DNA of 64,000 nucleotides from Naegleria gruberi (lineage: Eukaryota), in assembly GCA_000004985.1 (NCBI GenBank), contig GG738859.1. The stretch is one strand, 5' to 3'. The notes under the pieces were generated by a model. It was not told the origin of the DNA, did not search any database, and worked only from the letters and a program-made list of their open reading frames with translations. A program made the position numbers and the translations under genes. The first letter of the stretch is position 1. Every line of letters begins with the position of its first letter. Shown piece by piece: positions 20,750-41,300 of this stretch.

Positions 20750-22229
20750 ATGTCTTGTATTTTTGTATTTCTCGGGCAAGCTGGAAATCAAGTCGGGAAC
20801 GAGTTTATTAAATTGCTGAATGGAGAGTGAGTATTAACAAGAATTGATGATAGAGTCGTGATGATGATATTAATTATTATTCCATGATACTTGATGTATA
20901 ATATAATTGTATTATTCAATAGAAAGATATCTAAAAAGTCTAAGGGATTTTTTGATACCTATTTCAATACAACCTATTCAAAGGCAAGGGTAGTAATGGT
21001 TGATGCCGAGCCAAAGGTTATTAAATCAATTTTAGATGAAGAAAAGAAATCAAAATTATCAATTTATAATCCAAAGAATGTTGTATACTCGGAGGTAAGT
21101 AAATTCTTAATGGTGATGATGATAATAATTCTAAAACAATTAGAGTGGATGTGGTAATAATTGGGCTCTTGGATATAATTTTAAAGGAAAAGTTAAGAAT
21201 TTGACTAGTAATATTGCTCTCTCTGAAACAGAATCGCTATTGGAGGAAACAATGGAAAGAATTAGAAGAGAAATTGAGTGTTGTGACATTGTGCAGTCAA
21301 TATTCGTGTTTCACTCTATGGGTGGAGGTACTGGTAGTGGTTTTGGATCCAGAGTTGTTGAGGAAATAAGGAACAAGTATCCGAATTATTACGTTTTTAC
21401 AGTTTCAATTGCTCCATTTCAACATGGAGACACACCACTCCAACACTACAATTGCCTGCTCACTTTGAATCATATCCATGAACATTCTGATGGTGTTTTC
21501 CTGTTTGTGAATGATGATATTCTGAGGTCAATTACTAAAAATGCAAAAAGAAATAATGCTGGTCACTCAACTTTATTGGATGTGAGCTATTCAGTTTCAG
21601 ATATTAATAAGTACATCTCGTCATGCCTATGTGGAATGCTTCTTCCTATATATAATAAGGACTCCAAATCACATACTCCCTTCGATGCTTTCTCACTTGT
21701 GAATCAGGTTATTCCCCTTAAGGATACTAATTTTGTGGAATTACATACCAGTGCTCTCATCACCCATAATGCAGCACAATTTACATCATGGCAATATATT
21801 GCTGAAGATTTGACTAAACATGTCCCAATTTATGATATTGGACATGCAAATATTAGAACAATATTCTCAAAGACATTTATAAGAGGTGGCTTACAAACAT
21901 CACACGATCTGAATATTGTCAAATCAGTACTTCAAAAGCAAGCATTCTCTCCTGTGGATTGGATGTACGATAGAAAGGAGGAATTCAACAATGTAGTTTC
22001 CAGTGAGGAAGCCCTCAAAAGTTACAAACTTCCATACTCTCTAACTGTTTGTGCCAATAGAACAAGTTTCATGGAGCTTTTCAACAGGGTTTTGACCAAG
22101 TCATACACCATGTTACAATCCGGAGCATACATTAATTGGTATGAAAGACATGGATTGGAAAGGGAAGATTTTGATAATGCCATTTGCAATTTACAAAGTG
22201 TTGTTGATCACTATGTAGAATTGATGTAG
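20750..22229 (+). CDS. Delta-tubulin (centriole triplet-microtubule tubulin). Three exons: 20750..20826, 20923..21094, 21144..22229.
   Basis: Exon 1 MSCIFVFLGQAGNQVGNEFIKLLNGE carries the tubulin N-terminal GQ[AC]GNQ[IV]G motif. Exon 2 ..ARVVMVDAEPKVIKSIL matches delta-tubulin ..ARAVLVDMEPKVINQML. Exon 3 begins SGCGNNWALGYNFKG (delta: SGNNWAYGYSVHG) and contains FVFHSMGGGTGSGFGS (tubulin GGGTGSG). Introns are 96 and 49 nt (GTGAGT/GTAAGT donors). Total about 444 aa. Confidence 0.75.
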
Positions 22230-22705: not shown

Positions 22706-24079
22706 ATGAGTGACGATACATTGAGATTTGTAGACGAAACCAAACAAACTCAAGACACCTACTCCTACCTCAAGCCAATCGGTATTCGAAAGCTAAGAAA
22801 ACAAATCAACACTAAAGAATTCAAAAAGAATTACTTTGTCATTGACACTAGAAAGGAACAACCACTCGTTGTCCACTACGATCCAAACCATGTAAAAACT
22901 CCTCAATCTGCAGGTGGTAACTCCACTTCAGGAAGTAGTAGTTCAACTTCATCTGCTCCATTCATGAATAGCAATAATCAATCCCATCATGATAATCAGA
23001 CATTTCCTTCTTCATCACACCCTCCAAACAAATCATTAAGCTATCAACAATCAGGTAAACGTGTACAATTTTCTCAGAGAAATTCAATTTCACAACCCTA
23101 TCCAGCAACTCATCAACAATTTATGATGATGAATGGTGCTGAGAGTGATAGTTTGGTAGGTAATAATGGACAATCTGGTTCATTGTCTCAATTGATGGGT
23201 CAACCATGTGCAAGTAGAGAAATGAATCATCTCAATTCGAGAAGAACTTTATCAATGCCTGAGTTTTTGGCCCATTATTCACCTCCAACTGAGCTTGAAA
23301 ATTGTGATGAGACGAGTGGTCAATTGTTTGATGATCATCCACAAAATGAATCTCATCCATTAGATCAAGACTATTTGATGCAAACTGGTGGTAATAATGA
23401 GAATTCCATATCACCCATCTATAGAAAATCATCCATTGATTGCCAATTTACTCCAATTGACCAACAAATGATGGATGGTTATGCTCCATTCCTAACTCCT
23501 CACTCGATGAGTCCAGAAGATGAACAGCAAATTATTCAGCAGAATAATCAAACTGAAATTCATTCCCACCAACAATCCATTCAACATCATCAATTATTGA
23601 ACAAACACTTTTCCATGAATGATATTGGAAAGTTGACGATTCTCAATGGATTAGTCGAAAGTGGTCTATGCTACAATAACGATACTGTCAATATTCTAGA
23701 GACATTACAAATGGCCTGTAATGCTCATCATCAACAATCCCTAATGCTCAATATGCAATGTCAGCAAGATCAAATTCCACACCAAGAAGCAATGGATGAA
23801 CAACATGACGATTCCATGCAACAAGAAGAAGAAGAATCAGATTGTGATAGTAGTTCAGTTGCCAATACAGCTATCAGAAATAATAATTCATTTAATGATG
23901 GCAATATATCCTCAGAGCAACTGCATCATGATGAGATGAGCTCTCAAGAGAAATGCAACGTTTCTGAGAATAATCAACCACAAGAGGCTTCTTTAGAGGA
24001 ATATTCAGATTTACTGATTAATGATAATGAATTATTCGAGAATAACATCTTCTCTGATGAATATCTGTATGAAGAATAA
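22706..24079 (+). CDS. Hypothetical low-complexity (Q/S/N/H-rich) protein
   Basis: ATG at 22706 (aaaacATGagt). 457-aa open frame, no recognisable domain. Acidic C-terminus. Confidence 0.4.
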   Translation: MSDDTLRFVDETKQTQDTYSYLKPIGIRKLRKQINTKEFKKNYFVIDTRKEQPLVVHYDPNHVKTPQSAGGNSTSGSSSSTSSAPFMNSNNQSHHDNQTFPSSSHPPNKSLSYQQSGKRVQFSQRNSISQPYPATHQQFMMMNGAESDSLVGNNGQSGSLSQLMGQPCASREMNHLNSRRTLSMPEFLAHYSPPTELENCDETSGQLFDDHPQNESHPLDQDYLMQTGGNNENSISPIYRKSSIDCQFTPIDQQMMDGYAPFLTPHSMSPEDEQQIIQQNNQTEIHSHQQSIQHHQLLNKHFSMNDIGKLTILNGLVESGLCYNNDTVNILETLQMACNAHHQQSLMLNMQCQQDQIPHQEAMDEQHDDSMQQEEEESDCDSSSVANTAIRNNNSFNDGNISSEQLHHDEMSSQEKCNVSENNQPQEASLEEYSDLLINDNELFENNIFSDEYLYEE

Positions 24080-24112
24080 ACATCTTTTACACACTTTCTG
24101 ATATTCGAAAGT

Positions 24113-24330
24113 TTATGGCAAACCAGGCCAATTGTCAACATACTGAATCTTAAAATCTGGCCAATTATCAACAATTTGAATCTTGAAATCAGGGAAACTT
24201 GTTACAATTTGCCACTTTCCAGGTTTATCAGGCCAGTTGGAAACTTTTTAAACCTTAAGATCAGGCCAATTATTAACAACTTGAACTTTGTAATCTGGGA
24301 AGCTATCGACGATTTGAATCTTTCCATAGA
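24113..24330. repeat. Tandem repeat, about 6.5 copies of a 33-nt unit (consensus approximately CCAATTATCAACAATTTGAATCTTAAAATCTGG), with one 39-nt variant copy
   Basis: Direct reading: the units ...ccaattgtcaacatactgaatcttaaaatctgg / ccaattatcaacaatttgaatcttgaaatcagg / ...ccagttggaaactttttaaaccttaagatcagg / ccaattattaacaacttgaactttgtaatctggg... recur at 33-nt spacing. Confidence 0.7.
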
Positions 24331-24361
24331 TTTTAGCAATTTTATCTTTAGCAATGGTCAT
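24248..24361 (-). CDS. Mini-ORF (37 aa) encoding 11-residue [FW]PD[YFL]K[VI]Q[VI]V[DN][NS] repeats. The repeat reading frame continues another 44 codons past the TAA, to 24113, so this may be a pseudogene or a read-through gene.
   Basis: ATG at 24361 with an A-rich context (acaaaATGacc). Translation: MTIAKDKIAKIYGKIQIVDSFPDYKVQVVNNWPDLKV*KVSNWPDKPGKWQIVTSFPDFKIQIVDNWPDFKIQYVDNWPGLP*. The periodicity is unbroken across the first TAA. Confidence 0.3.
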   Translation of the reverse strand: MTIAKDKIAKIYGKIQIVDSFPDYKVQVVNNWPDLKV

Positions 24362-24724
24362 TTTGTTTAATTGATTGTTTTTTTTGTTTGAGATCAAGTT
24401 TCTTGGTGGTTATTCAGAGATTTATTGGAATATTTTGAGGTGTTTCATGGATTGTTATCTTCCTCAGGACCATAAATGTTAGTTCTGACAAGTTGTGTGG
24501 GCTTTTAGAACACGAGTCCTTGATTTCATCGTAGTTGAATAGCAGCTTATTTCACATACGGTACAAAAATTCAAAGTCTAGCTTGAGAATGCAAGCTTCT
24601 TTGGTTATCGGAAACCTTTCGGTTAACTATAGATCAATAAAATCAGGCAAAATATTTGCGTATGTATTAGATTAATAATTTATGTTGTGAATAGTTATAT
24701 TTACAAATTTAAATGCAAAATGTC

Positions 24725-25936
24725 CTATTTTGCATACTCTTCTCTCAGTGTACCCATCATCATGTCTATTATTCTATTGGAAATACCATAGTTCACATAG
24801 TCACCTCCCTCTTCAAAGTGATGAATAAAGTGATGTGATTTGAGTGTCTTCCAGTAATCTGAATTGACATAGTAAGAAATTGGATTCAAGAGTGATGATT
24901 TCATATTAGTTTGATGGTGCAACCAATAATGATGCATATCATAAAAGAGGTAACCAGTAAATGCACCAGCAATTAATAAATTGCTATAGGAAGGCAGTAT
25001 AAACTTGACAAGTAAATAGACAGGTGCAGATAGAACACACATCAATGTTGGAGGAACGACCAATCTGTCCTTATCCATTGGAACCTTATGATGGAAACCA
25101 TGAAGTAAGAAGTGAGCAATGTTTGTCAAGTAGTAACCCATTTTGCCTAGTGAATCCCAGTGGAATAAGAATTTGTGAAAGAGAATTTCAATACCAAACC
25201 AAGCTAAAAATCCAGTGACATATCCCAGAAACATGATAGAGAGTTGTGAATTGTGTATTTGTGAGGAAATATAGAGATTGTAGATAATGAATGGGATCCA
25301 AATGAGGGGTACCACATACCATGGAGTAAGAGACAATGGTTCTAATAGCCCACTTTGAAATAATGGAACTGGTTCTTTAAAGTAAACAGGAGATGTGTTG
25401 TGAACCCAGTGGAAATAATCCTTTCCCATCAAACCTACTTGATGACACAGTGGTTGTTGATAATTGGCAGGATCATTGGCGTCTTGAGTCAGTGTGGTAG
25501 CTGTTTCAGAGCTTAATGTTGATTTATAATTAGGTAAATAATCACTGGCCTTTCCAACAAGATACTGATTGAGCATTGAGAAGGCATTCTTTGAGTGTTT
25601 GTGAATTGAAACATCACTCATTACTTGAGTAACATCCTGTCCAAGGTAATCCTCAATTATATCAAAGCCACCTGGATGAACATCAACAAACTCTGTCATA
25701 TCATAAATATGATCGTTTACAATAAGCCACTTTGCAGGTAATCTCTTTTCTTCGGAGGCAGCAGTTGAGGTTGAAGCGTTTGACTTGAGCAAGTTTGAGT
25801 TGGAGGTGTTGGTGCCAGGACGTTGCCCACCACTTGCAATTGTTGTTGTTGATGAGGAGGAGGAGGTACTCAATACAGGTTGATGTACACCAAAGGCAAT
25901 AGCAGTTGCATTGCTATGAGCATTCACGCTTATCAT
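24725..25936 (-). CDS. Fatty acid 2-hydroxylase (FA2H/Scs7-like): N-terminal cytochrome b5 domain fused to a fatty-acid hydroxylase (sterol desaturase superfamily) domain
   Basis: Cytochrome b5 haem-binding motif HPGG (..DVHPGGFDIIEDYLGQDVT..). Multi-pass membrane region with His boxes HKFLFHWD / HHKVPMD / HHYWLHH / HHFIHHF. ATG at 25936. Confidence 0.75.
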   Translation of the reverse strand: MISVNAHSNATAIAFGVHQPVLSTSSSSSTTTIASGGQRPGTNTSNSNLLKSNASTSTAASEEKRLPAKWLIVNDHIYDMTEFVDVHPGGFDIIEDYLGQDVTQVMSDVSIHKHSKNAFSMLNQYLVGKASDYLPNYKSTLSSETATTLTQDANDPANYQQPLCHQVGLMGKDYFHWVHNTSPVYFKEPVPLFQSGLLEPLSLTPWYVVPLIWIPFIIYNLYISSQIHNSQLSIMFLGYVTGFLAWFGIEILFHKFLFHWDSLGKMGYYLTNIAHFLLHGFHHKVPMDKDRLVVPPTLMCVLSAPVYLLVKFILPSYSNLLIAGAFTGYLFYDMHHYWLHHQTNMKSSLLNPISYYVNSDYWKTLKSHHFIHHFEEGGDYVNYGISNRIIDMMMGTLREEYAK

Positions 25937-26828: not shown

Positions 26829-27974
26829 ATGCCACCAAAAAAGAAGACAACACCATCATCTGATCCCTATGATGATCCTCTCTTCCTTCAGGTTATTGCC
26901 GATGTTGAGAGGAAGAGAAAGCGTATGATGGCAAGAATGAAGGGTGATGACGATGATGATGGAGATGTGTTTCGTATTACTCGTGTTGTGACGGAAAATC
27001 CTGATGGAACAAGAAGTGCAAGAAATGTTTTTTACGACCCGAATGATGAATATGCTGATGATGATGATGATGACGATGATGAAATAAGCATTCCCTCATC
27101 GAGAAGTTCTTCATCTAGGAAATCATCTTCAAAATCTTCTACTAGCAGAGCAGCAACAACCTCTTCTAGCAGTAGAGCATCCACTGCATCATCAAGTAGT
27201 AATTTAAGTAGTGCACTTAGTGCAATTATGGGAGGTTCTACTTCTCGTTCTAACTCTAATGCACCTGCTGTTGTGCCTCCTGAAGATGTTGGAATTTATA
27301 CAGAATATGGTTATCAATCAACTAGAGAAGCACTTGATGAACAAATAACGTCAACTAGAGCCTACAGAGCTCTCTATCAAGTTAAAGCAGTTATTACTTC
27401 TCCAACTACGAAAAATGTTGTGTATAGAGAATTTGTCATCTCTGCCACAATTTTATTCAAGAATCTCAACGAGTTGCTTTGTCTTTTGTTTGGTTGGTCA
27501 ACTGTTGAAAATTATCATTTTACATATGAAAAGGATGGAGAAACAAAGCAAATCTTGAAAAGAGCTGGTAAAAATAGTCAAGGTGTAAGCAGTACAAAAT
27601 TCTGCCAAGTTTGTCCATATCCAGGAGATTCCTGTGTTTGGTATCCAAATGCTACCACCCAAGTTAGCCTAACTGTCGATGTTATTAATTTAGATGGACA
27701 AGTGGAATCCGTTCCAAGATGTGTTGGATTAAATGGTAAAATTGATTTGGACACTGGTAAACAAGGTACCCTTAATGAAACTGAAACCAATATTGATAGA
27801 GTAAATTCAAAGCTCAAAGGAAAGAGATTTGCAGCCAATTCAGCTAGTAATAACACCAAGAAGAAGGGCATAAAAATGTTAGTCCCTAGAGACACTACCC
27901 AGTCAGAAATTAATCAAATAGCCAATAATGTTTATAGATCTAAATTATTTACACCTGACAGAACTAAATTCTAA
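26829..27974 (+). CDS. Hypothetical protein with poly-Asp and Ser-rich low-complexity N-terminal half and a Cys-containing globular C-terminal half
   Basis: ATG at 26829 (aaaaaaaATGcca). (GAT)n-encoded Asp runs. No family recognised. Confidence 0.4.
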   Translation: MPPKKKTTPSSDPYDDPLFLQVIADVERKRKRMMARMKGDDDDDGDVFRITRVVTENPDGTRSARNVFYDPNDEYADDDDDDDDEISIPSSRSSSSRKSSSKSSTSRAATTSSSSRASTASSSSNLSSALSAIMGGSTSRSNSNAPAVVPPEDVGIYTEYGYQSTREALDEQITSTRAYRALYQVKAVITSPTTKNVVYREFVISATILFKNLNELLCLLFGWSTVENYHFTYEKDGETKQILKRAGKNSQGVSSTKFCQVCPYPGDSCVWYPNATTQVSLTVDVINLDGQVESVPRCVGLNGKIDLDTGKQGTLNETETNIDRVNSKLKGKRFAANSASNNTKKKGIKMLVPRDTTQSEINQIANNVYRSKLFTPDRTKF

Positions 27975-28103: not shown

Positions 28104-29372
28104 ATGTCTACAGCACAGAGTTGTAATTTTTCATACAAAATTCCCTATTTTGAAACACCAAGTGAAGGATCAACACACTTTAATGTTGGTCTCTGCATTG
28201 GAAAACAATTTAAAGATCAAATCAATGAATATTTGACACGATCCGATCTTCCCTTCCAATCAATTTATTTACCCTATGTATTATCAAAGAAAGATGATCA
28301 AGATGAGTCAAGAAGAATTGAAAAAGAGGCACAATCAACATCTTCCGAAGGTGATCATTATGCACTGTTGAGACCTTGGATTCAACTTGTTGATGAGCAC
28401 TTTCCGAAATATGTTCAGGAAATTCGTGGATTAGCTGCAGGTTCAGAGCAACCATTCGAGTGGCTCTTCATGTTGAACATGTTGAATGAATTGAGGGGTA
28501 AAATATTGCACGATGAAAGATTGAAGGATAAAAAGACGACAAAAGTTGGAGGATGCTCTGAAGTGTTTGTCTGTTGTAAAACCAGTGAAATGGAAAGGGC
28601 ATTGATGGCTCACAATGAAGATGCTGATAAGAGTATGGGCGAATATTCATATATTGTGAAGAGTAATTATTTGGAGGAGAATGGATCTGTTGTTAGGAGT
28701 ATGGTTGCCTATCATTATCCTGGAACAATTGGAGGAAATACTTTTGGATGGAATGAATATTTGGTTTTTGGAACGAATGGAAAATCACCAAAGAAAACCC
28801 TCACAGAATCTTGTGGAATACCAAGATGTTTCATTAATAGATATGTGTACGAATCAAAGAGTATTGAGGAGGTTCACACAAGGTTGGAAGAATATGCCCT
28901 TCTTAGTTCATCAGGATTTTCCACCAATGTTTCAACTCGATTTATTGTTAAGGATGACGTGAATGATTTTTATCAAATGGCTAATATTGAGTTGGCTCCT
29001 TCTCTTGATGGTAAAGAAAAGCAAGTTTCTAAATATTCTATTCCAATTAAGAGAAATAATTCAGATCAACCTCACTATGTACATGTCAATCATTATTTGC
29101 ACTTGATGAATATTCCAGAGGAGGAAGTCCCAAGCTCCAGGCACAGATATGCAAGAGCAATGTGTCATTCCAATATAATATCAGAGAATGAAATTATTCA
29201 ATTGTTGGGAGATACAGAGGACAAGGAATATCCAATCTTTAGAACAAGCAATCACCCAGATAAGGGAAAGACTTTGGCTACCTTTATTGTCAATATAATT
29301 GAACAAACTGTTAATATCTATGTTGGCAATCCAATTCACACACCTCCACTTTATACAATGACATTGTTTTAA
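28104..29372 (+). CDS. Putative Ntn-hydrolase of the peptidase C45 / acyl-CoA:6-aminopenicillanic-acid acyltransferase-like family
   Basis: An internal Gly-Cys (..KTTKVGGCSEVFVC..) follows a propeptide of about 148 residues, as at the self-cleaving G|C nucleophile site of C45/AAT enzymes. The overall length (422 aa) and downstream His/Arg-containing segments are compatible. This is a weak assignment from pattern memory only. Confidence 0.3.
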   Translation: MSTAQSCNFSYKIPYFETPSEGSTHFNVGLCIGKQFKDQINEYLTRSDLPFQSIYLPYVLSKKDDQDESRRIEKEAQSTSSEGDHYALLRPWIQLVDEHFPKYVQEIRGLAAGSEQPFEWLFMLNMLNELRGKILHDERLKDKKTTKVGGCSEVFVCCKTSEMERALMAHNEDADKSMGEYSYIVKSNYLEENGSVVRSMVAYHYPGTIGGNTFGWNEYLVFGTNGKSPKKTLTESCGIPRCFINRYVYESKSIEEVHTRLEEYALLSSSGFSTNVSTRFIVKDDVNDFYQMANIELAPSLDGKEKQVSKYSIPIKRNNSDQPHYVHVNHYLHLMNIPEEEVPSSRHRYARAMCHSNIISENEIIQLLGDTEDKEYPIFRTSNHPDKGKTLATFIVNIIEQTVNIYVGNPIHTPPLYTMTLF

Positions 29373-29379
29373 TAACATG

Positions 29380-31317
29380 TTAATCAGCTTTATTTTTCAT
29401 TATTTGTCCATTCATTGTTAAACATTTGGCACGTATTGGTGAAATTGTTTTAGAGATGGATTGTTGAGAGAGTTTAGAATTGGAGGTTTGGGAAATTTCC
29501 ATCTTGATTTCCAAACAACCAAGAATTAAGGCATTGTACATGAACGTTTTCTTATCCTTTTGAGAGGTATTTACAAGGTTGGAAAGGAAGAAATCTCTAG
29601 TATTGGCATCACCAAAATACATACAACCACATTCTGAAAGCTTAGTAAGAGTGTTAGTAATCTTGGTAATTTTCATAATCTTCAATCCCCAAGTGTTATC
29701 AATTACGTCCATACTAGAGTTATCGTAACCTTCAGATTTTACACAGACAACATATTCACTCCTTTGAGAATCATAAAAGTTTGTAGCAAGCATATTGAGC
29801 TCCTTTCCATTAGAACCACTGAATCTGCTGAATAATGAAGAACCACTACTACTTGGAACATTTAGAATTTCATCGTAACAATAAAACTGACGATTTCCTC
29901 CATGTACATTAAAGTGAGGGTCTAACAAATCAGTTCCAAGTTGATTGTCCTTACTCTTCTTTTTCTTTGAAATAATAAAGTGGTTCTTTTCCAACATTTG
30001 GAATACTTCATGATGAGTGAATGGAAGATAACTGTGATATTTCCAGATTGAGGTCTTATCTAGTGGGAGATCATGATGAATTTTTCTATTTACATTCTTG
30101 GAGATCATTGAAAATGTGAATGTCCCTCCATTTCTTGACAAGTAATCCTTGTGTACATGGTTTGGAATACACTTGTTGGAATTGATTGCCTCCATATTTG
30201 AAGGAATGGTATATACAATATCCCAATCCGGTGAATCAGCCATTAATGAGTTCATATAGTTCATGTGTTCTTCAGAGAGGAAGAGTGATGATTTCATTTC
30301 AGCAAGAGATTTGAATAATGATTCTCTTTCAGACCTTACTGGTATAGCCAACATGTTGAGAAATTCTGAAACGTTTCTATTCGATAAGAGGAAGATATTA
30401 TCCTTGGATTTTCTTCTATGTGATCTATTTTCAAAGTGGTGGTGATGATTGAAACTGACTCCACTTGTTGAAGTAGCTGTACTGTTAGTATCAGCTGATT
30501 CTTCCTCATCATCTTCATCTGAATTGTGATTGGTAATAGCAAATGAATTTCCTTCCCGTTCTCCATCCAATTTCGAAGTATCTTTGAGTGTTGAATATTC
30601 CGTATCAGTATGTCTTGAACTTAGTGATGATTCGTCTGAAAGTTTAATGTCTAGAATGGCATTAGAATCTGTACTTCCAATAAATGTCGAATCATCTATA
30701 CTCGATTGAGTTGCAGAATATGAATTAGCAGGTGAGTGTGCTGCAGCTCTTCCCAAAATCAAATTATTAAAATGGTCAGAATGAATGCTCAACGTTGTTG
30801 AACTCTCAGTATTTCTAGGAGATGTCAAATAAGAATTACTCTTCTTAATACTCCTCAATCGATTGATAATGTGCAATTTGAAAGCATCAGTTCTAATAAA
30901 CCTTGGAAAGGCATCATGTTTCAAAAAGCATTCAATCTCCCACTTCTTCTCAGCATATAACAAGTTATCATAATAAGATGGATTATGTTTCATTTGCAAA
31001 TACAATGAGAGAAGAGGAATATATCTACCATCACTATCACTTTCCAGAAAGTGTTTAAACAAGGACAATATCGTTTGTTGAGCATAAACTGAGGATGAAT
31101 CATTGGCCTCCATCGTCGATGCACTCAAACAACTCTCCATATCAAATGAGTAGTGTTTGAAAATTGATCGTTCCTCCTTCGTTACCTTCTTTCCAGTATG
31201 ATGAGAAATATTAGCCTCTCCTCCCTGTTGTTGCTGTATCTGATTCATTTTCAGTGAGAGTACTTGTTGGTGATTAATACCATTCACTGATGATGCACTT
31301 GATGCTGTAGAGGTCAT
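29380..31317 (-). CDS. RGS-domain protein with a START/Bet-v1-like C-terminal half (paralog of the 34249..36174 gene)
   Basis: RGS-like helix pattern near the N-terminus: ..SLFKHFLESDSDGRYIPLLSLYLQMKHNPSYYDNLLYAEKKWEIECFLKHDAFPRFIRTDAFK.. Acidic/Ser-rich linker. C-terminal region ..SEYVVCVKSEGYD..WGLKIMKITKITNTLTKLSECGCMYFGD.. has alternating beta-like segments. ATG at 31317. Confidence 0.5.
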   Translation of the reverse strand: MTSTASSASSVNGINHQQVLSLKMNQIQQQQGGEANISHHTGKKVTKEERSIFKHYSFDMESCLSASTMEANDSSSVYAQQTILSLFKHFLESDSDGRYIPLLSLYLQMKHNPSYYDNLLYAEKKWEIECFLKHDAFPRFIRTDAFKLHIINRLRSIKKSNSYLTSPRNTESSTTLSIHSDHFNNLILGRAAAHSPANSYSATQSSIDDSTFIGSTDSNAILDIKLSDESSLSSRHTDTEYSTLKDTSKLDGEREGNSFAITNHNSDEDDEEESADTNSTATSTSGVSFNHHHHFENRSHRRKSKDNIFLLSNRNVSEFLNMLAIPVRSERESLFKSLAEMKSSLFLSEEHMNYMNSLMADSPDWDIVYTIPSNMEAINSNKCIPNHVHKDYLSRNGGTFTFSMISKNVNRKIHHDLPLDKTSIWKYHSYLPFTHHEVFQMLEKNHFIISKKKKSKDNQLGTDLLDPHFNVHGGNRQFYCYDEILNVPSSSGSSLFSRFSGSNGKELNMLATNFYDSQRSEYVVCVKSEGYDNSSMDVIDNTWGLKIMKITKITNTLTKLSECGCMYFGDANTRDFFLSNLVNTSQKDKKTFMYNALILGCLEIKMEISQTSNSKLSQQSISKTISPIRAKCLTMNGQIMKNKAD

Positions 31318-31961
31318 TTTGCTATTGGAGTAATTTTCAAAGGCTTTGTTTTCGCGGTTTTTTTTTAATATTTTGTTAGTAGATGTTGAATTTGTCTCTT
31401 TAAAGCTGTTAGATAACTTGGAGTTTTGTTAATAATGCAGCATGAATGGTGTTGAAATACTTCATGAGCATGAAATGTTTCGTGTAGTCCAATTATGTCC
31501 ATAGAAAGACAAGTCTTGATTGAAATGGATAAGGTGAAAGCATCATGAACAGCAAGTGAATCGCTCGAATAATTAAAATAGAAAGTATCGAATTGGTTTA
31601 ATACCTATCTCTAGAGAGGGAGAGAAGCAGAACTACAGTTATTCGGCAGAGAGAAACTATTCGAAAGTTGTCAAGTACTATTTAAGAGTTGATGTAAATT
31701 CTTTCTGAAGTGTCTTATCCATTGTCCTTAAATTCAATTATTGGTTCGCACCTTATTCGAACAGTAACAATTTCGAATTAATCCTTCGACAAAGATCATA
31801 AAAAGTCTATGTGAACGATTGGTAGAGCTTGGTTGATGAGAAAACTAAGGAAAGGTTGGTGACAAACAATAATGCACAACTGTAGAGTAGAACATGTTCA
31901 GTAAGAGAGATAGAGTTTAACAAAGAAGAAATTTGACAAATTCTAGAAAACCGTGACCAAT

Positions 31962-33017
31962 TTATTGCTCTGGTTTGTTATACAACAAACACGAAAGAGA
32001 AGGCAATACATTTGCTGGTTGTGGCTTGGCATACAAGTCAAGTGTTGATCTTTCTGGAGGAGTTGTCAATAATGCAGAAAGAGGTGGCAATGTTTCAAAT
32101 GGCTTTTCAAAGATTCCTCCAAATGGAGGAGGAGCAATTCTTGAAACACATTGTTGGATTGGACTTGGAACCTTTGTTGGTTCTGGGAATTGCTTTTGAG
32201 AACAAGTTGAATTTGAGAGTGGTGAATGACAATAGGGACCGATATTATCATAACATGGTCTTCCGCTTACACCATCAAACCTTTGCTCTGGTGATGATAC
32301 TCTTGAATAGTTTGGAGGAGAATAAGGACCATTATATGGAGTAGGATCAACAGGAGGAGATGTTATCATATTATTCTGAGTTGAACATCTCTGATATTGA
32401 TGTGTGTAAGGCACAAAACCTCTTGGTGCATTGTTATCAACGTTGGAATGTTGATAACTTGGTTGAATGACATTGTGGTAACTTTGAGAACCAGCATTGT
32501 AGACATTAGTAGCATAGTGTTGTTGAGACAAGACAGAAGGCTGTTGCGGAGGTGTTTGAATAGGTTGGAAAACGACACTGGATTGTTCCATGATGGGTTT
32601 AGATAACAATACATTGGAAACATCCACCATTTGCTTCTTTCTCTTCTTCTTTGTAATTCCTCTTTGTGGATCAACCTTGTTCTTCTTTGGCTCTTCCTTC
32701 TTCAAGAACCAATGTGAAAGATGGTGTTCGCCAACCTTTCTTGATTGTACAGAAGTACTGTTCTTGCCCAATGATCCACTAGCTTCAGAGTCTAGTAAAC
32801 AATTTGATCCACCAACTTGATTGTTGGATGATCCACTACTATTGTTATCATCAACCACTTTTTGCTTTCTTTCCTTCTTTTGGGGAGTTGCAGCACTAAC
32901 ACTGTTTTCAATGCTCGAAAAGATTTTAACCTTCGGATCCTTTACAAAGAAATTAAAGGATTTTGTTGATTGATATTCGTCAGTTGTGCTTAATTGTTGT
33001 GCTGTACCACCACTCAT
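31962..33017 (-). CDS. Hypothetical Pro/Gln/Ser-rich protein with a basic KKKRKK patch (possible nuclear protein)
   Basis: ATG at 33017. ..RGITKKKRKKQMVD.. resembles a nuclear localisation signal. Long P/Q/S/Y-rich low-complexity C-terminal half. No domain recognised. Confidence 0.35.
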   Translation of the reverse strand: MSGGTAQQLSTTDEYQSTKSFNFFVKDPKVKIFSSIENSVSAATPQKKERKQKVVDDNNSSGSSNNQVGGSNCLLDSEASGSLGKNSTSVQSRKVGEHHLSHWFLKKEEPKKNKVDPQRGITKKKRKKQMVDVSNVLLSKPIMEQSSVVFQPIQTPPQQPSVLSQQHYATNVYNAGSQSYHNVIQPSYQHSNVDNNAPRGFVPYTHQYQRCSTQNNMITSPPVDPTPYNGPYSPPNYSRVSSPEQRFDGVSGRPCYDNIGPYCHSPLSNSTCSQKQFPEPTKVPSPIQQCVSRIAPPPFGGIFEKPFETLPPLSALLTTPPERSTLDLYAKPQPANVLPSLSCLLYNKPEQ

Positions 33018-34248
33018 TTAGATGACAATAAATTTGGAGGTTTATCTTTGCAATACCAGAGAGTCTTCTCAGAATAATAATGATAATACAATATGAATAG
33101 TTTGAATAATTCAATTGTTGTTGTTGTTATGTGTTATACAAGTAGGATTAAATTTCTATACCGCAAGCAAAAATACTCAACGCGCAATGCTGAATTGCTT
33201 CTTGAATATCAGATATTAGGTACAGAGGTTTAAAAATATTTTTTTTTAAATAATATCAGATGCAGAAAAGAGCGAAGATGGTGGCGATGAATGTATTCAA
33301 TTATCGGAGATGGTAGCCATAAAAGAACGATGAGTAACGACTTGGTTAAAAATGCGAACCTTTAACGCCATTTTTAAATTGTCATTTCTTCGCTTATGCA
33401 TCAACAAAACCAACTAAGGCACCACTACCTTAGATGAACCTCTCAGTAAACAGCCTTATAGTTTACAAAATGATGAAGGATTCTCTTTAGGGGTTATTAA
33501 ACCGAACTCTATCACCAAACAGCTATATATCTAAAAAAGTCAATTGGCTGTTAATGCAGATAAAGGTCTAAAAGGAATTGTTAATTAAAATGTTGAACTT
33601 TACAAAAAAACCAAACATGACTGTGTTCAAACAGTGTGCATGGCTTTATTTGTTTTCGTTCACTTTCCAACAAAACTTTGTTATTTCATGAAAACCGACA
33701 CAATCAAAAACACATACGTATTTAAAAGGAATCTTTGTTAATAGATTCGAAATATGGCTGTCATCCAAATGGAATCTCTAACTACAGTAGAATGGATACT
33801 ATTACTTTAACCGCGCCCAAACTACAATTAAATTATTAAACTCGTCCTTAAAGAACAGATTCGTTATTGATTCATTTATTATAATGTTTTATCTGTTTTA
33901 GATATGCTATTTTCCTTAGGGGTGTCTCCGAAGCGAAATCACAAACGTCTTGACCGATATGTCTATAATTTTTAAAATTGTTTAGCAAGACAACCAAAAT
34001 CACAGTGAGGCGGATTTTAAAACTTTTCAAAAAAAACCATCGAAACTCTTCTCTCAACTCAGAAGGCAGACAACCACAACTTTCAACAGCTATTTGTTGC
34101 CCGACTCAAAGTGGATAAATTCAAAGTCTAAGATCTGAAAGGTTCATCATCACCATCATTATCAAAACACTGAATTATATTGTTTGCATTGGAGTTTAAA
34201 CATTGGATATTTAAATATTATTGATACTATTATCAAAGAAACACTGAG

Positions 34249-36174
34249 ATGAAACCCTTGTCGTCTTCCTCAACTTGTACAACAACAAGAAAACCATTAC
34301 GGGAGGTGGTTTTTATGGATGAAAGTAAATTACCATCATTGGATTTGCCATCTATCGTGATGATCGGAGGAGATTCATCTTCCATTGATGGAGTTTCTTC
34401 ATCATCCAATTCTTCATCACCTAATCAACCAATGATTGTATTGAGTCATACGGATAATCGTCATCAGAGAATTACCTCTATGCAATTTAATTCAATGAAG
34501 GCTATTCAGGAGCATATGGGTATTTTAGAAGATGATGGAGAGGATGAAGATTCGAATACAGATTCATCAACTAATAGTAGTATTACTAGTAGTCAGGGAC
34601 AAACCGCAATTAGTACAAAATCAAATAATATTCATTCAACATCATCTCCGAGTAGATATGAAAGCAGTCTTTCACCACCATCCTCACCACAAACATCATC
34701 CTCACCTAAAATGTCATCTCCACTGACAGGTTTATTAAAATTGGCATTGAGAAAGAAGAATTCAAAATCTACCTCACCATCCACTTCAAGTGATAATGTT
34801 TCCAATTCTTCGTCAATGAGTACGAGCACATCATTATCAGAAAAGAAAAAGAAAAAGAAGGAGAATCATCACAAAATTGATCTCAATGACTATCTCTTTA
34901 CATACGAGAAGGTCATTAGTAATGGAGAAACAAGTCAACTCTTTCTCAAGTTTTTGACAATGAAGAAAACTTCTGAAAGCTTACTTTTCGTACTGAAATT
35001 TAGAGAACTGAAATCAGCATTTAAGTCAATAAGCGATCAAGCCAGTGACAAGCAGGAACAATATAGAAATACTCTGAAAACAATCGAGGAATTATACAAG
35101 TGCTTCTTTGCATTTGATTCTTCTATGGAATTGAATTTACCACTCAATTTACATGAGCCAACCACAAAGATAATGGAAGAATACGAATCCAAGAGAGAAA
35201 AACTTGCAGATGATGAAATTGTTTCAATCATTTCTAATATTTTGAGCGAGTTTAAAAAAATCGAGAGCTATTTAAATTTGAATTTGAAAGAGTGTCAATT
35301 TTTGGAATTTTTGGAATGGGAAAAGTTTAGAAAATTTATTACCAATAAGGGGTCGATACATTTAGCAGAGATTGCAGAAATGAAACCTTTCTCTCATACA
35401 TCATTTGTTGAAAGTTTAGTGACAGAAATGAGCAAACCAAGAATTACTGTCAAACAAGCAAAACAGATCAAACATCTAGTGGTAAAGAACACATCTATAT
35501 GGACACCAATTATAACAGAATCCAATTATATAGTGTCATTATCCAACAATCAATACTTACTAGGCGAGGAAGAGTCAAACTCTTCTAATAAGGGTGTTTA
35601 TTTTTTCAAGTATGAGATTACATTCCCATATCCAAAACAAGCTGTCATCAACACACTTCTCAGCTCAAAGCTCAGATTCAAGTTTGATAAGAATACTAAA
35701 ATGCTTTCAAAGATTGATTATTTCCCTAAAGAAGATAACGAAAATCTGGCAACTTGCATCTCACAAGAGGTTTATGATTTTCCTTTCCCTTTCCAATCAA
35801 GAGAAATGGTTCTTGCCTGTGCTGTATTCAATGATTTGACCGATAATTCAACCATGTTATGTCTGAGGTCGTGTGAAAGTGATAAAGCTGTCAAGCTCAA
35901 AAAAACTGTCAAGGCAAAGAATGTTGGCTGTTGGATTTTCCAAGATTTGAATGGAACTCACACTAGATATATACAATTCGTTGGAGCTGATTTCAAAGGT
36001 TTTCTACCACCAAAACTAGTTAAATCAAACGTTGCTAAACGTGCCAAGTATTACTATGCAGATAGTTTGAAAATGTTCGAACATCCAGAAGACGATTTCA
36101 AGGAGCCACAGGATGATCCTCTTTATTCTGGTTTTATGGATACACTCAAGGAAAATGGTGGGTTATCTATTTGA
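34249..36174 (+). CDS. RGS-domain protein with a START/Bet-v1-like C-terminal half (paralog of the 29380..31317 gene)
   Basis: After a Ser-rich N-terminus: DLNDYLFTYEKVISNGETSQLFLKFLTMKKTSESLLFVLKFRELK..EELYKCFFAF (RGS-like). C-terminus ..FPFQSREMVLACAVFNDLTDNSTMLCLRSCESDKAVKLKKTVKAKNVGCWIFQDLNGTHTRYIQFVGADFKGFLPPKLVKSNVAKRA.. is START-like. ATG at 34249. Confidence 0.5.
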   Translation: MKPLSSSSTCTTTRKPLREVVFMDESKLPSLDLPSIVMIGGDSSSIDGVSSSSNSSSPNQPMIVLSHTDNRHQRITSMQFNSMKAIQEHMGILEDDGEDEDSNTDSSTNSSITSSQGQTAISTKSNNIHSTSSPSRYESSLSPPSSPQTSSSPKMSSPLTGLLKLALRKKNSKSTSPSTSSDNVSNSSSMSTSTSLSEKKKKKKENHHKIDLNDYLFTYEKVISNGETSQLFLKFLTMKKTSESLLFVLKFRELKSAFKSISDQASDKQEQYRNTLKTIEELYKCFFAFDSSMELNLPLNLHEPTTKIMEEYESKREKLADDEIVSIISNILSEFKKIESYLNLNLKECQFLEFLEWEKFRKFITNKGSIHLAEIAEMKPFSHTSFVESLVTEMSKPRITVKQAKQIKHLVVKNTSIWTPIITESNYIVSLSNNQYLLGEEESNSSNKGVYFFKYEITFPYPKQAVINTLLSSKLRFKFDKNTKMLSKIDYFPKEDNENLATCISQEVYDFPFPFQSREMVLACAVFNDLTDNSTMLCLRSCESDKAVKLKKTVKAKNVGCWIFQDLNGTHTRYIQFVGADFKGFLPPKLVKSNVAKRAKYYYADSLKMFEHPEDDFKEPQDDPLYSGFMDTLKENGGLSI

Positions 36175-36768
36175 AAATATTTTAAATAGTGCTGAAATAG
36201 CACAAATGAATAGCATTATATCAAGGATTGTTAAACGAGTTGTAGTTGATAGGAGAATGTTTCATTTCTCAAGAGTATTAAAGAATTCTGCCCATCAGTT
36301 GCATCAATTTGTTCTTCATCTTTCTCACCTCTAGCTAGAGAACATCATTTGAAATTGTCACTCTTAAAATTTCAAATATTTAACAGTTTCTTCATTTGAG
36401 TTTTACAGGGTTACTATTGTTCCTTTCATTTTTAAATAAATCTTAATTATTCCTTTTACAATTAGAAAAGGTTCACTCATATTTGAAATAGATCTATTCG
36501 AATGTGAAAATTAACCATTAATTTAAATAATTATCTCTAATTTACAATGAAACAAATTTTGGATAATGTTTACATTTCGGCTCAATGCTCATCTAGACTT
36601 GGAATAGAGAGGTAATAAAAGAAATCTTCGTGGCCTTTTTCTTCGTTTCTTTACCAGCATCATCTGTCAATCACCATTTAAAAAAAATTCCCTTGCTAGA
36701 GGACACAAAAACTCGAGTACTTGCCAACTCCTTTCCACTACACACCCTCAGCTACTTCTAGACTTTAA

Positions 36769-37743
36769 ATGACTGATCAATCTGTTGACGATTTTGAACT
36801 TTCTGATGATAATTCTTTAAAGATTATTGTTGTTGGTAGGTTTGTGAATGATGAAATATTTGTATTCAAATAACAACCAATAACTAATAACAAAATATTT
36901 AAAAATTAGGTGATGCGAGTGTTGGTAAAACATGCATGTTAATTTCATACAGGTAAGATATTTGGAATTTTTCATATTTAAATTCTTGATTATCCACCAC
37001 ACTTCAACATTATAATGAATGACATGTGTCATCATTGTGCTTTTTAACAACAAATATCATCAACAGTAATAACGAATTTCCAACAGAGTATAACCCTACA
37101 GTATTTGGTTAGTAGTCATTCAAATAATTATAATATTCATAATTCTTTTCTAATTCAATAACAACTTTGATGAATTTTTGAATATACAGACAATTATACA
37201 GCTAACGTAGTTTACAAGGAAAAAACTGTCACATTGGGATTATGGGATACTGCTGGTACTGACGAAGTAAGTAAACATGGTGATGTTCCGTGCCTTTTAA
37301 CATTTGAATAGTATGATCAATTGAGACCGTTATCTTATCCCGACACTCACATTTTTGTTATTGTATTTGATTTAACTAATAAGGATTCACTTGAATCAGT
37401 TACGAAGAAGTGGGTTCCTGAAATTAAAGAACACACTAAAGATAGACCAGGTGGTGTACCATTCATCATTGTTGGAAACAAATTGGACTTGAGAAATGAC
37501 CCAAAGGAAAAGGATAAATGTGTTCCAAGGTGAGTTGATTTTCAATTACAATAATCTAATTGAGATTGTAGATCTGATGGTGAAAAAGTTAAAACAAAGA
37601 CTGGAGCTGCTCGTCTCTTAGAATGTAGTGCCAAGACTCAAGAAGGACTGAAAGATGTATTTGAACAATGCATAGAAGTTGTCATAGAAAACTACATGAA
37701 AAAGAAGAAGGGAGGAAAGAAGGATAAATGTACACTCCAATAA
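36769..37743 (+). CDS. Rho/Rac-family small GTPase with a polybasic tail and CaaX box. Six exons: 36769..36835, 36910..36952, 37067..37107, 37190..37266, 37312..37529, 37572..37743.
   Basis: Spliced product: MTDQSVDDFELSDDNSLKIIVVGDASVGKTCMLISYSNNEFPTEYNPTVFDNYTANVVYKEKTVTLGLWDTAGTDEYDQLRPLSYPDTHIFVIVFDLTNKDSLESVTKKWVPEIKEHTKDRPGGVPFIIVGNKLDLRND...LECSAKTQEGLKDVFEQCIEVVIENYMKKKKGGKKDKCTLQ*. Carries the G1-G5 motifs, the Rho insert context and a C-terminal CTLQ. Introns are 74, 114, 82, 45 and 42 nt (GTAGGT, GTAAGA, GTTAGT, GTAAGT, GTGAGT donors). All phases verified by hand. Confidence 0.8.
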
Positions 37744-37800
37744 CTCATATTTTTGTAATTTGATTTTACCAATCTTTTTACAGGGAGGTAAAATATTGTA

Positions 37801-39525
37801 TTAATGTAACTGTTGCATACGCTTTTTTAACATTATAACCTGTTCACTCGTTGATAAATTCAGTGAGGTATCGAAATCATTAATTATGGAATTATTTGTT
37901 GGTTTAACATTATCTACACTTCTTACATCTCCTTGCTGTTTCAACAAATTGATTTGGGATCTCATATAATCAAACATTTTACATTCTGATTGATGGGTAA
38001 GTGTACGAATTCTTTCGTCCATCAATCGATAATTTTCTTTTGCAACTCGTTGTTCAATCTTGGTCAGGGAATTCTTAATTTTAGTTCCAACCTTTTCATA
38101 GAATTTAGTTTTAAATTCCTCAACTTCTTTTTTCACAACTGTTTCAATATTGCCTTCCAAGAATGCCACCTTTTTTCTTAATTCTTCAATTTCCTTTTCC
38201 ATAGATTCCATCTTCTTATCGTTGGTATTTACATCTTTGAATCCACCTAGGGATGTTCTCGTTCTAGTTGGCCTGTTAATCTCATTGACTTTTTCAGACA
38301 GCTCCTCCAAGTTCTTTCTTGTTTTATGAACTGCAGCATCTTTGAGTTTAGCTCTTTGTCGTCTCTCTTCGAGGATTAGATTTTCCTTATTAACTTGTTG
38401 ATCTTTCTTTGCTATTGTAGCCGAAGCAGGTCTAGTAGTGGCGGTTCCTAGAGACTTTTTCTTTTCCTCAACCTGGGCACGGGTGGTAGTAATGATTGCG
38501 GATTGAATTTGATTAGAGACATCTTTGAGAGGGGAGGTTTTCGTTGATGGTTGTGATTCCCTCTTGGTAACCACTTCTTTCTTTGGAGAGATGAGGTGTG
38601 GCTTTTCAATCTCTGATTTTTTAAAGTTTGGAAGGGATGCAGCTAGAGGGTTGCTTCTTGCTGTGGATGATTTCTTAAATGTTGGAATAGATACAAGGGG
38701 AGAACTAGAGATTTCTTTAAGTGAAACATTACTGTAATTTAGCATTACTGTTCCATTATTATAATTATCAAAATTAAATAAACCTGATTCATTGGAACTG
38801 ATATTAAACATGAGGTCGTCATATTTGGCGCTTAATTCTTTGGATAATTCGTCTGTTGTGAAAGAAGCTGGGTTAAATGATGGCATTTCAATTGTACAAG
38901 CCTTTGCACTTTTAATGGGTGAGAATGAAGTTGGAGATTTGGTTGGCGATTCTCTGAGGCAGTCATTAATGGATCTGATTTCAGTATTTTCAGGTACTGA
39001 GGATGGCATATCTCTGAGAATGAATATCTTATTAAGGTAAACTCGATTTCCTCCAAAAGTTTCACTAACCGAGAATTTAAAGAAGGAAAAATCTGCTGGT
39101 ATTGATTGAATAGAAAAAAGATGAAGTGAAGTATTTTCCTCAGCTCTTAGACTTGACCAATGAATAAAAGGACCATCCCTACTTCGTGAAATGAAGAGTT
39201 TAATTTTCTTTGGATTGAAAACATATCTCTTCTTGCAATACCATCCAACACACGAGACTGGATACGAGTGCAAAGGCACTTGAATTGTACAGTCTTGTGG
39301 AAGTCCAACATCGGTGATCCAAATTTCATCCTCTTCATCATCGGCCAATATACTGTTACATGGGTAGTCCTCCTGTTCTGTTGTTCGGGAAACAATGCAA
39401 GCACCCTTAATTTTTGAGCAGAGGTTAGTCTCGTGCTTGAACATTTTTTTTAAATTTCTGATAAACTGATTTTTGTATTTTTTTGGCGGGCTCATTAAGG
39501 GCGCAAATTTTCCTTCAATGCTCAC
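37801..39525 (-). CDS. Hypothetical protein: N-terminal beta-rich globular domain, Ser/Thr/Pro-rich linker and a C-terminal coiled coil of about 170 aa. The 5' end is unresolved.
   Basis: The ORF-track start at 39525 is a GTG that sits immediately after a TTTTCAG acceptor, so the first exon is probably missing. The first in-frame ATG is at 39495 (MSPPKKYKNQ..). A candidate 35-nt 5' exon lies at 39564..39598 (ATGaggaat...ctaag|GTAAAA). It only keeps frame with the weaker acceptor gtgtgag|c, giving a 43-nt intron. The gene is transcribed divergently from the kinesin-13 gene, 270 bp away. Confidence 0.45.
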   Translation of the reverse strand: MSIEGKFAPLMSPPKKYKNQFIRNLKKMFKHETNLCSKIKGACIVSRTTEQEDYPCNSILADDEEDEIWITDVGLPQDCTIQVPLHSYPVSCVGWYCKKRYVFNPKKIKLFISRSRDGPFIHWSSLRAEENTSLHLFSIQSIPADFSFFKFSVSETFGGNRVYLNKIFILRDMPSSVPENTEIRSINDCLRESPTKSPTSFSPIKSAKACTIEMPSFNPASFTTDELSKELSAKYDDLMFNISSNESGLFNFDNYNNGTVMLNYSNVSLKEISSSPLVSIPTFKKSSTARSNPLAASLPNFKKSEIEKPHLISPKKEVVTKRESQPSTKTSPLKDVSNQIQSAIITTTRAQVEEKKKSLGTATTRPASATIAKKDQQVNKENLILEERRQRAKLKDAAVHKTRKNLEELSEKVNEINRPTRTRTSLGGFKDVNTNDKKMESMEKEIEELRKKVAFLEGNIETVVKKEVEEFKTKFYEKVGTKIKNSLTKIEQRVAKENYRLMDERIRTLTHQSECKMFDYMRSQINLLKQQGDVRSVDNVKPTNNSIINDFDTSLNLSTSEQVIMLKKRMQQLH

Positions 39526-39794
39526 ACCCTGAAAACCAAAACTATGAACAATGTTAATTTTACCTTAGATTATAATGATTGTTGAATAAATTCCTCATTA
39601 ATATATTAAATAAATGGCCACTATATTTTATCAGTCATGATAACTGAAGCTAACTGCTGAAACATGATACAATTTTGTATGCTTGAATAGTTTCCCGCCA
39701 AATTGTAATTACTTGGCGCCTTCCACCAATACAAACTTTAAAAAAAAGCAAAAAATACCATCATCAAGGAACCACCAACAGAGAAACCGCAAAA

Positions 39795-41261: not shown

Positions 41262-41300
41262 CAACCTAACTAATTTATTAAACAATGTATATACAAATTT

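Follow-up and report, generated by a model that had tools for sequence, protein, structure and literature searches.

In a 64,000-nucleotide stretch of the Naegleria gruberi genome (assembly GCA_000004985.1, contig GG738859.1; hereafter the window), we characterized a small repeat-encoding gene on the minus strand at 24113..24361. The gene is a newly recognized eukaryotic member, and apparently an unannotated one, of a family of knotted proteins that was itself already known. Our favored account, which we hold to be probable, is that a bacterial gene of this family was transferred to Naegleria, became adapted to its host, and was then cut by a C-to-T change that created a stop codon at a conserved glutamine. 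A bacterial origin within a eukaryotic chromosome goes beyond the original prediction, a model's annotation made from the sequence alone, which had described the locus as a tandem-repeat mini-gene interrupted by an in-frame stop codon.

Membership in a family of knotted bacterial proteins

The gene consists of an 82-codon frame that opens with an ATG at 24359-24361, lacks a signal peptide, and contains one TAA internally and another at its end (24113..24115). The internal TAA (24248-24250) is codon 38. It is preceded by 37 sense codons (24251..24361; MTIAKDKIAKIYGKIQIVDSFPDYKVQVVNNWPDLKV) and followed, in the same frame, by 44 more (24116..24247; KVSNWPDKPGKWQIVTSFPDFKIQIVDNWPDFKIQYVDNWPGLP), while the listing of open reading frames (ORFs) gives a truncated ORF at 24248..24397 on the minus strand. 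The coordinates and the in-frame stop read exactly as first described.

To search for homologs, we used the 82-amino-acid (aa) read-through product with glutamine placed at the TAA as a query against a database of 5.8 billion clustered proteins. The product matched 621 proteins, with a best E value of 8.6e-34. Identity to bacterial homologs was 55-76% with 85-100% of the query covered, and it reached a maximum of 79-80% in local tblastn segments. Among the 120 listed matches of the 621, proteins were 107-143 aa long, all carried the precomputed label PF19647.5, and the named sources were Verrucomicrobiales or Pirellulaceae. The alignment with the bacterial proteins was collinear from residue 1 to residue 82, with a C-terminus of the form PG-L/V-P common to both, and the terminal TAA coincides with the bacterial C-terminus (FPG-L/V-P), marking it as the true stop of the gene. 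Against a profile built from the 120 bacterial cores, the read-through product scored 144.3 bits, while the bacterial members themselves scored 142-161 bits. Judged by this homology, the read-through product is a member of the PF19647 / Q9PR55 SFPD-repeat family, which the original prediction had not recognized.

The family is broadly bacterial. Relatives were found in the genomes of at least 572 bacterial species spread over many phyla, including Verrucomicrobiota, Planctomycetota, Pseudomonas, Spirochaetia, Leptospira, Bacteroidales, and Myxococcales, and a profile search of 1.84 billion representatives returned 1,501 clusters at 50% identity. PF19647 is presumably the family named DUF6150; a literature search on either designation found nothing, and hmmscan against Pfam-A and NCBIfam assigned no family to the read-through product. 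The bacterial proteins share with the Naegleria copy a 13-residue third repeat unit (PDKPGKW), an internal two-fold symmetry, and the C-terminus. In contrast, the bacterial genes are intact, encode a leader, and have a different codon usage, whereas the Naegleria copy is stopped and leaderless.

Family members also occur in other arrangements. Thirteen viral or proviral contigs in IMG/VR encode members with 38-68% identity to the query, so the knotted-protein family also travels on phage-like DNA. Some bacteria carry two family copies about 1.5 kb apart (e.g., 2435-2662 and 3998-4225 in locus L068), and two tandem family domains are found in proteins of 181-273 aa (P0141, P0145, P0153, P0154, P0176, and P0275). 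Bacterial gene neighborhoods were uninformative about function: 93 loci were compared, 80 of them genomic and 13 viral, and neighboring families did not recur beyond lineage-specific synteny, any one of them being shared by 6 loci at most.

A phmmer search of PDB sequences returned one real match, UU089.1 (8iwa_A; E = 4e-11), in which residues 14-75 of the query pair with residues 26-88 of the chain; the matched structures of this protein are 8IWA, 8IWB, 8IWC, 8JRM, and 8W68. UU089.1, or Q9PR55, of Ureaplasma is an 89-residue monomer in which residues 15-89 form a six-stranded beta-barrel tied into a 7_1 knot; a conserved SFPD tetrapeptide occupies every loop, the phenylalanine side chains point outward in a star-like arrangement, and the protein withstands 7.2 M urea and the unfoldase ClpXP (PMC10840475). 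Its knotted core has been assigned to residues 27-83, and a 5_1 knot has been predicted for its homolog P73136 of Synechocystis (PMC9278004). P73136 belongs to the same family and shows that the winding number, and with it the type of knot, depends on how many strand units are present. At about 45% identity, the Naegleria copy and Q9PR55 follow one repeat grammar, in which x-aromatic-P-D turns connect beta-strand units. Unlike Q9PR55, the Naegleria copy has an additional turn at its C-terminus (NWPGLP), replaces Ser-Phe by Asn-Trp in four turns, is encoded in a eukaryotic nucleus, and carries a stop codon in the middle of the putative knotted core.

Structural modeling of bacterial relatives was consistent with this fold. 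An AlphaFold2 (AF2) model of the Verrucomicrobial homolog P0003 (120 sequences) contained six five-residue strands, with a predicted local distance difference test (pLDDT) score of about 88-95 in the core. For the model of a 74%-identical bacterial relative, UU089.1 was the sole PDB match, superposing over 64 residues at 2.1 A. By analogy, each unit of about 11 residues in the intact 82-aa Naegleria product would form one five-residue beta-strand (K-[IV]-Q-[IV]-V) followed by a tight [S/N][F/W]-P-D turn, and the six strands are predicted to make a tiny beta-barrel with the chain wound into a torus knot and the turn aromatics pointing outward. The beta-solenoid or beta-hairpin stack that had been proposed for the repeat gives way to a predicted six-stranded, torus-knotted barrel, the kind of fold solved for Q9PR55 (PMC10840475). 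Our working guess is that the intact protein might serve as a hyper-stable, protease-resistant scaffold that displays a circle of aromatic side chains for binding.

The repeat unit can be followed along the whole gene. Six turns of the form [SN][FW]P[DG] start at residues 20, 31, 42, 55, 66, and 77, giving spacings of 11, 11, 13, 11, and 11. The original prediction had spoken of an unbroken 11-residue period; the repeat does continue across the TAA, but the third unit is longer by two residues (a KPGK insertion) and thus measures 13. All on the minus strand, the turns comprise loop 1 (SFPD, residues 20-23, 24293..24304), which has the ancestral form seen in the SFPD loops of Q9PR55 (PMC10840475); loop 2 (NWPD, residues 31-34, 24260..24271), with a lineage-specific change from Ser-Phe to Asn-Trp; loop 3 (NWPD, residues 42-45, 24227..24238), followed by the family-wide KPGKW insertion that produces the 13-residue unit; loop 4 (SFPD, residues 55-58, 24188..24199), again ancestral; loop 5 (NWPD, residues 66-69, 24155..24166); and a C-terminal turn (NWPG, residues 77-80, 24122..24133) that is SFPG in bacteria. 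Codons 1-37 therefore cover strands 1, 2, and half of 3, while codons 39-82 cover the remainder of strand 3 through strand 6 plus the C-terminal NWPGLP.

The repeat is really a feature of the protein and is weak in the DNA. Tandem Repeats Finder reported 2.0 copies of a 33-nucleotide (nt) unit at 24126-24190 with 84% matches, and a repeat search found a 98-nt pair, 105 nt apart, with 74% identity. At the protein level there is an internal two-fold symmetry of 35 residues, in which GK[IW]Q.V.. and three turns occur twice (24124-24221 versus 24229-24326 in the window). The same symmetry was present in all 77 bacterial copies examined, a pattern that implies an ancient duplication of a three-strand unit. 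The window also contains an antisense ORF of 64 codons (24176..24370, plus strand). All homology, however, was confined to the minus strand, which is the coding strand, as had been favored from the start; the plus-strand ORF is an antisense shadow of the repeat's codon pattern and not a gene. The opposite strand was also open in 19 bacterial loci (of L006-L098), extending to about 180 codons in GC-rich bacteria.

What sets the Naegleria copy apart within the family is the composition of its turns. While two of the six retain SFPD, four have become NWPD or NWPG, with the spacing, the P-D/G, and the aromatic and polar character all kept. In the bacterial set, 48 columns are conserved at 90% or more, and the Naegleria copy keeps 40 of them. 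The eight changed columns (S31N, F32W, S42N, F43W, S66N, F67W, S77N, and F78W) amount to the four Ser-Phe to Asn-Trp swaps, and restoring Ser-Phe in silico raised the score against the same bacterial core profile to 157.6 bits. In 266 family proteins, the pair preceding P-[DG] was almost always Ser-Phe, followed by Ala-Phe, His-Phe, and Asn-Phe. Tryptophan appeared in the pair in a single protein (as Ser-Trp), and Asn-Trp was absent from all 266. Asn-Trp turns were likewise absent from 80 metagenome loci, some of which had been fetched with Naegleria-specific patterns (e.g., QVVNNWPD and NWPDFKIQ). Furthermore, the change from Phe (TTC) to Trp (TGG) takes two transversions toward G, here in an AT-rich genome. 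Asn-Trp at four homologous positions with the rest preserved looks like the product of selection, or of selection together with short-tract conversion, rather than decay. The order of the turns (SF/NW/NW-SF/NW/NW) follows the 35-residue symmetry, and we considered gene conversion between the halves as the source of Asn-Trp. This was unsupported: DNA identity between the halves was 73.7%, bacterial copies range from 0.52 to 0.79, and 6 of 77 bacterial copies equaled or exceeded the Naegleria value. Because the symmetry is family-wide and the identity lies within the bacterial range, gene conversion cannot be shown.

Probable horizontal transfer into the Naegleria lineage

The gene lies among genes of its host, which are of typical eukaryotic kinds. 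The window is nuclear DNA: six of its long ORFs match annotated proteins of N. gruberi NEG-M exactly, and these are encoded on a scaffold of 530,355 bp. On one side, the stop codon of a cytochrome-b5 fatty-acid hydroxylase gene (FA2H; 24725..25936, minus strand) is 363 bp upstream of the mini-gene ATG. On the other, a convergent gene for a 457-aa predicted protein (22706..24079, plus strand) ends 34 bp from the mini-gene stop. The composition of the gene is also that of its host, with a GC content of 34.1% and a third-position GC content (GC3) of 30.1%, compared with 34.8% and 29.4% in host genes. Calculated against the genes of the window, its codon index was 0.777, near the top of the host range (0.69-0.80) and above the range of bacterial copies (0.30-0.63). 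Together, the host neighbors on the scaffold and the host-like GC content and codon usage indicate that this is an integrated gene and not contamination.

At the DNA level, the best identity to any bacterial copy was 73.6%, and only the gene itself matched bacterial loci; its flanks had no bacterial similarity. We found nothing convincing in the way of flanking repeats or mobile-element signatures, and an Rfam scan of 23000-25500 returned no RNA family. Nearly all bacterial homologs (114 of 116) have a hydrophobic N-terminal leader, with a lipobox in some. The Naegleria copy has no such leader: its ORF begins 12 residues before the first core glycine, and the frame upstream is closed and hydrophilic. 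The Naegleria copy encodes the mature domain alone of a family of small secreted bacterial proteins.

The order of FA2H, the convergent gene, and a tubulin gene is kept in N. fowleri, N. lovaniensis, and one further heterolobosean contig, while the gene order is not kept at the FA2H locus of Willaertia magna. Since the family is broadly bacterial and no copy was found at the sites of these relatives, the transfer appears to be specific to the lineage. The simplest history would be horizontal transfer from a bacterium into the N. gruberi lineage followed by long constraint, during which the gene was probably functional in Naegleria as a cytosolic protein. The N-terminal IAK[IV]YGK resembles members from the Verrucomicrobiales, although this is only a hint. 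The N. gruberi genome paper of 2010 reportedly describes other bacterial genes that Naegleria acquired horizontally. Those genes likewise stand singly among eukaryotic genes, have a host-like composition, and are patchy in relatives. The mini-gene is unlike them in being apparently unannotated, very small, and interrupted by a premature stop.

Several observations weigh against this account. Three of the five AF2 models of P0003 were poor (pLDDT 44-52). The PF19647 label comes entirely from the precomputed annotation of the matches, and hmmscan against Pfam-A gave no PF19647 match for the bacterial proteins P0003, P0010, and P0002 either, with E values allowed up to 10; the model seems to be absent from the Pfam-A copy used or lost to its filters. 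The absence from relatives is that of a tblastn match to the 82-aa product at the syntenic or FA2H sites of four relatives only. Last, the best identities were scattered over Burkholderiales, Spirochaetia, Verrucomicrobiales, and Planctomycetota and did not single out a donor; the roughly 75 alignable, highly conserved positions give no phylogenetic resolution on this point.

The internal stop codon and its interpretation

In the column aligned with the internal TAA, 93 of the 120 homologs have glutamine and 17 have lysine, while the other 10 have R, L, E, or M. CAA is used for four of the five remaining glutamine codons of the gene, and from the column and this preference together, the stop is explained by a single C>T transition from CAA to TAA. 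It is the one disabling lesion in the gene; there is no frameshift, no second premature stop, and no decay beyond the TAA. The two parts of the product were also scored separately on the profile of bacterial cores: the 44 aa beyond the stop gained 77.9 bits and the 37 aa preceding it 55.8 bits. One possibility raised at the outset was a longer protein of about 82 aa that had been recently truncated or was interrupted by a sequencing error. This idea has held up well, given the end-to-end alignment, the placement of the TAA at a glutamine column, and the second TAA at the family C-terminus.

On balance, we lean toward a real and very recent nonsense mutation, which would make the gene a newborn pseudogene or a null allele. 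The CAA-to-TAA change is probably very recent, and if the gene is a pseudogene, the preservation of its sequence indicates that it is a very young one. In the phmmer alignment, codon 38 maps near residue 50 of Q9PR55, midway through the knotted core. With a real stop, codons 1-37 would be the sole translated part and only 2.5 of the six strands would be made, so the fold would be abolished; past the TAA there is no in-frame methionine at which translation could restart. Weak evidence in the same direction came from an AF2 model of the 37-mer, which had no strands, a pLDDT of 66, and a predicted template modeling (pTM) score of 0.16. None of the 37-aa, 49-aa, and antisense 64-aa products had an exact match on record. 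The top matches of the read-through product included no N. gruberi protein, and because of this and the missing records for the 37-aa and 49-aa products, the gene appears to be unannotated. Look-ups and homolog searches on the neighboring FA2H, 457-aa, and 381-aa ORFs yielded no orthologs, with or without the stop.

It is possible, though in our estimate rather doubtful, that the gene is intact and functional and that the TAA is a base-call or assembly error, or an allele of one haplotype or laboratory strain with CAA in other copies. The gene has no defect other than one C>T in a single codon, and no decay downstream; all conserved columns outside the Asn-Trp swaps are kept, codon usage is at the top of the host range, and a N. 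gruberi-like genome that differs by 0.5-1% exists in public data, such that allelic or strain variation is real. However, a true nonsense mutation of recent date would look exactly the same, and there is no sign in the sequence that the base is unreliable. Moreover, no intact 82-aa ortholog was found among the 5.8 billion clustered proteins, and a DNA pattern allowing any base at the stop position had no match in JGI metagenomes. The only second N. gruberi-like contig found, a metagenome contig in the ENA (ERZ929261 / ERR1078381, PRJEB11402), is 99.0-99.5% identical to 13 kb of the window (28231-41380) and ends before the mini-gene. Were the TAA a mere variant, a scenario that we advance tentatively, N. 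gruberi would have domesticated a bacterial mini-protein with a predicted torus knot, with loss of the leader directing it to the cytosol and selection remodeling its turns until four of the six outward-facing aromatics were Trp, with Asn replacing Ser; the gene would then be functional in nature. Such a domesticated copy would be the only eukaryotic member found of the 7_1-knot family.

We consider it very unlikely that the TAA is decoded, whether by programmed read-through, by reassignment to glutamine as in ciliates, or by splicing of a 39-nt GT..AG mini-intron that contains it (codons 37-49). The TAA does align to glutamine, as a TAA=Gln code would produce, and excision of GTTTAAAAAG...GGAAAG (39 nt) would leave an open 69-aa repeat protein with the 11-residue register kept. 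Yet TAA closes 22 of the 30 long ORFs in the window, the standard code leaves frames of up to 2,367 codons open, and the gene's own terminator, at the homologous C-terminus, is also TAA. The suggestion that the stop is read through thus runs up against a codon that serves here as an ordinary terminator. The TAA is followed by A, and TAA-A is among the least leaky termination contexts in eukaryotes. As for the mini-intron, its donor would be the noncanonical GTTTAA, in contrast to the GTAAGT of a tubulin intron in the window, and splicing would remove 13 residues that are present in all homologs.

A functional 37-aa micro-protein followed by fossil repeats, the other proposal made for this locus, strikes us as highly implausible. 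The 37-codon ORF does begin with an ATG and has good codon usage. The downstream part, however, is undecayed and conserved at least as well, with more bits per residue than the N-terminal part; the downstream stop coincides with the family C-terminus; and the 37-mer represents less than half of the knotted core and has no confident fold. Finally, although Naegleria is grown on or with bacteria and the family is otherwise bacterial, bacterial contamination, misassembly, or a chance noncoding satellite can be dismissed, given a 249-bp gene that lies 34 bp and 363 bp from Naegleria genes inside a 530-kb scaffold, host-like composition and codon usage unlike those of most bacterial copies, flanks lacking bacterial similarity, and protein E values of 1e-33 that exclude chance.

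Neighboring genes and biological meaning

Other genes in the window were also identified. A divergent tubulin-family gene (20750-22229, plus strand; Pfam Tubulin, E = 1.6e-27) can be read only with two short GT..AG introns, one of 96 nt (20827-20922, donor GTAAGT) and one of 31-64 nt ending at 21143, from which it follows that the genome has short spliceosomal introns. A 381-aa protein (26829-27974, plus strand) contains Asp-rich and Ser-rich runs, with an ATG-type trinucleotide array in its DNA at 27043-27082. The bacterial plasmid protein domain PRiA4_ORF3 gave a weak, subthreshold match to it (E = 2e-5), and this may be a further gene with a bacterial-type domain. A 422-aa protein (28104-29372, plus strand) belongs to the acyl-CoA:6-aminopenicillanic-acid acyltransferase family (AAT, PF03417; E = 4.6e-23).

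The Q9PR55 family includes the protein knot that is both the most complex and the smallest known, and the Naegleria copy represents a natural experiment on it: the secretion signal was lost, host codons were adopted, and four turns were swapped, while all other conserved positions were kept. A copy with Asn-Trp turns is relevant to the residue requirements of the knot, and especially to the published idea of a "phenylalanine linchpin." For the amoeba, which feeds on bacteria, the locus adds one more unannotated small gene of bacterial origin, apparently caught while being inactivated. If the stop is real, the gene is merely a very young pseudogene and its wider significance is modest. Interest would be higher if the stop proved allelic or erroneous and the gene were expressed, and the Naegleria copy offers a second cellular context in which to seek the function of the family.

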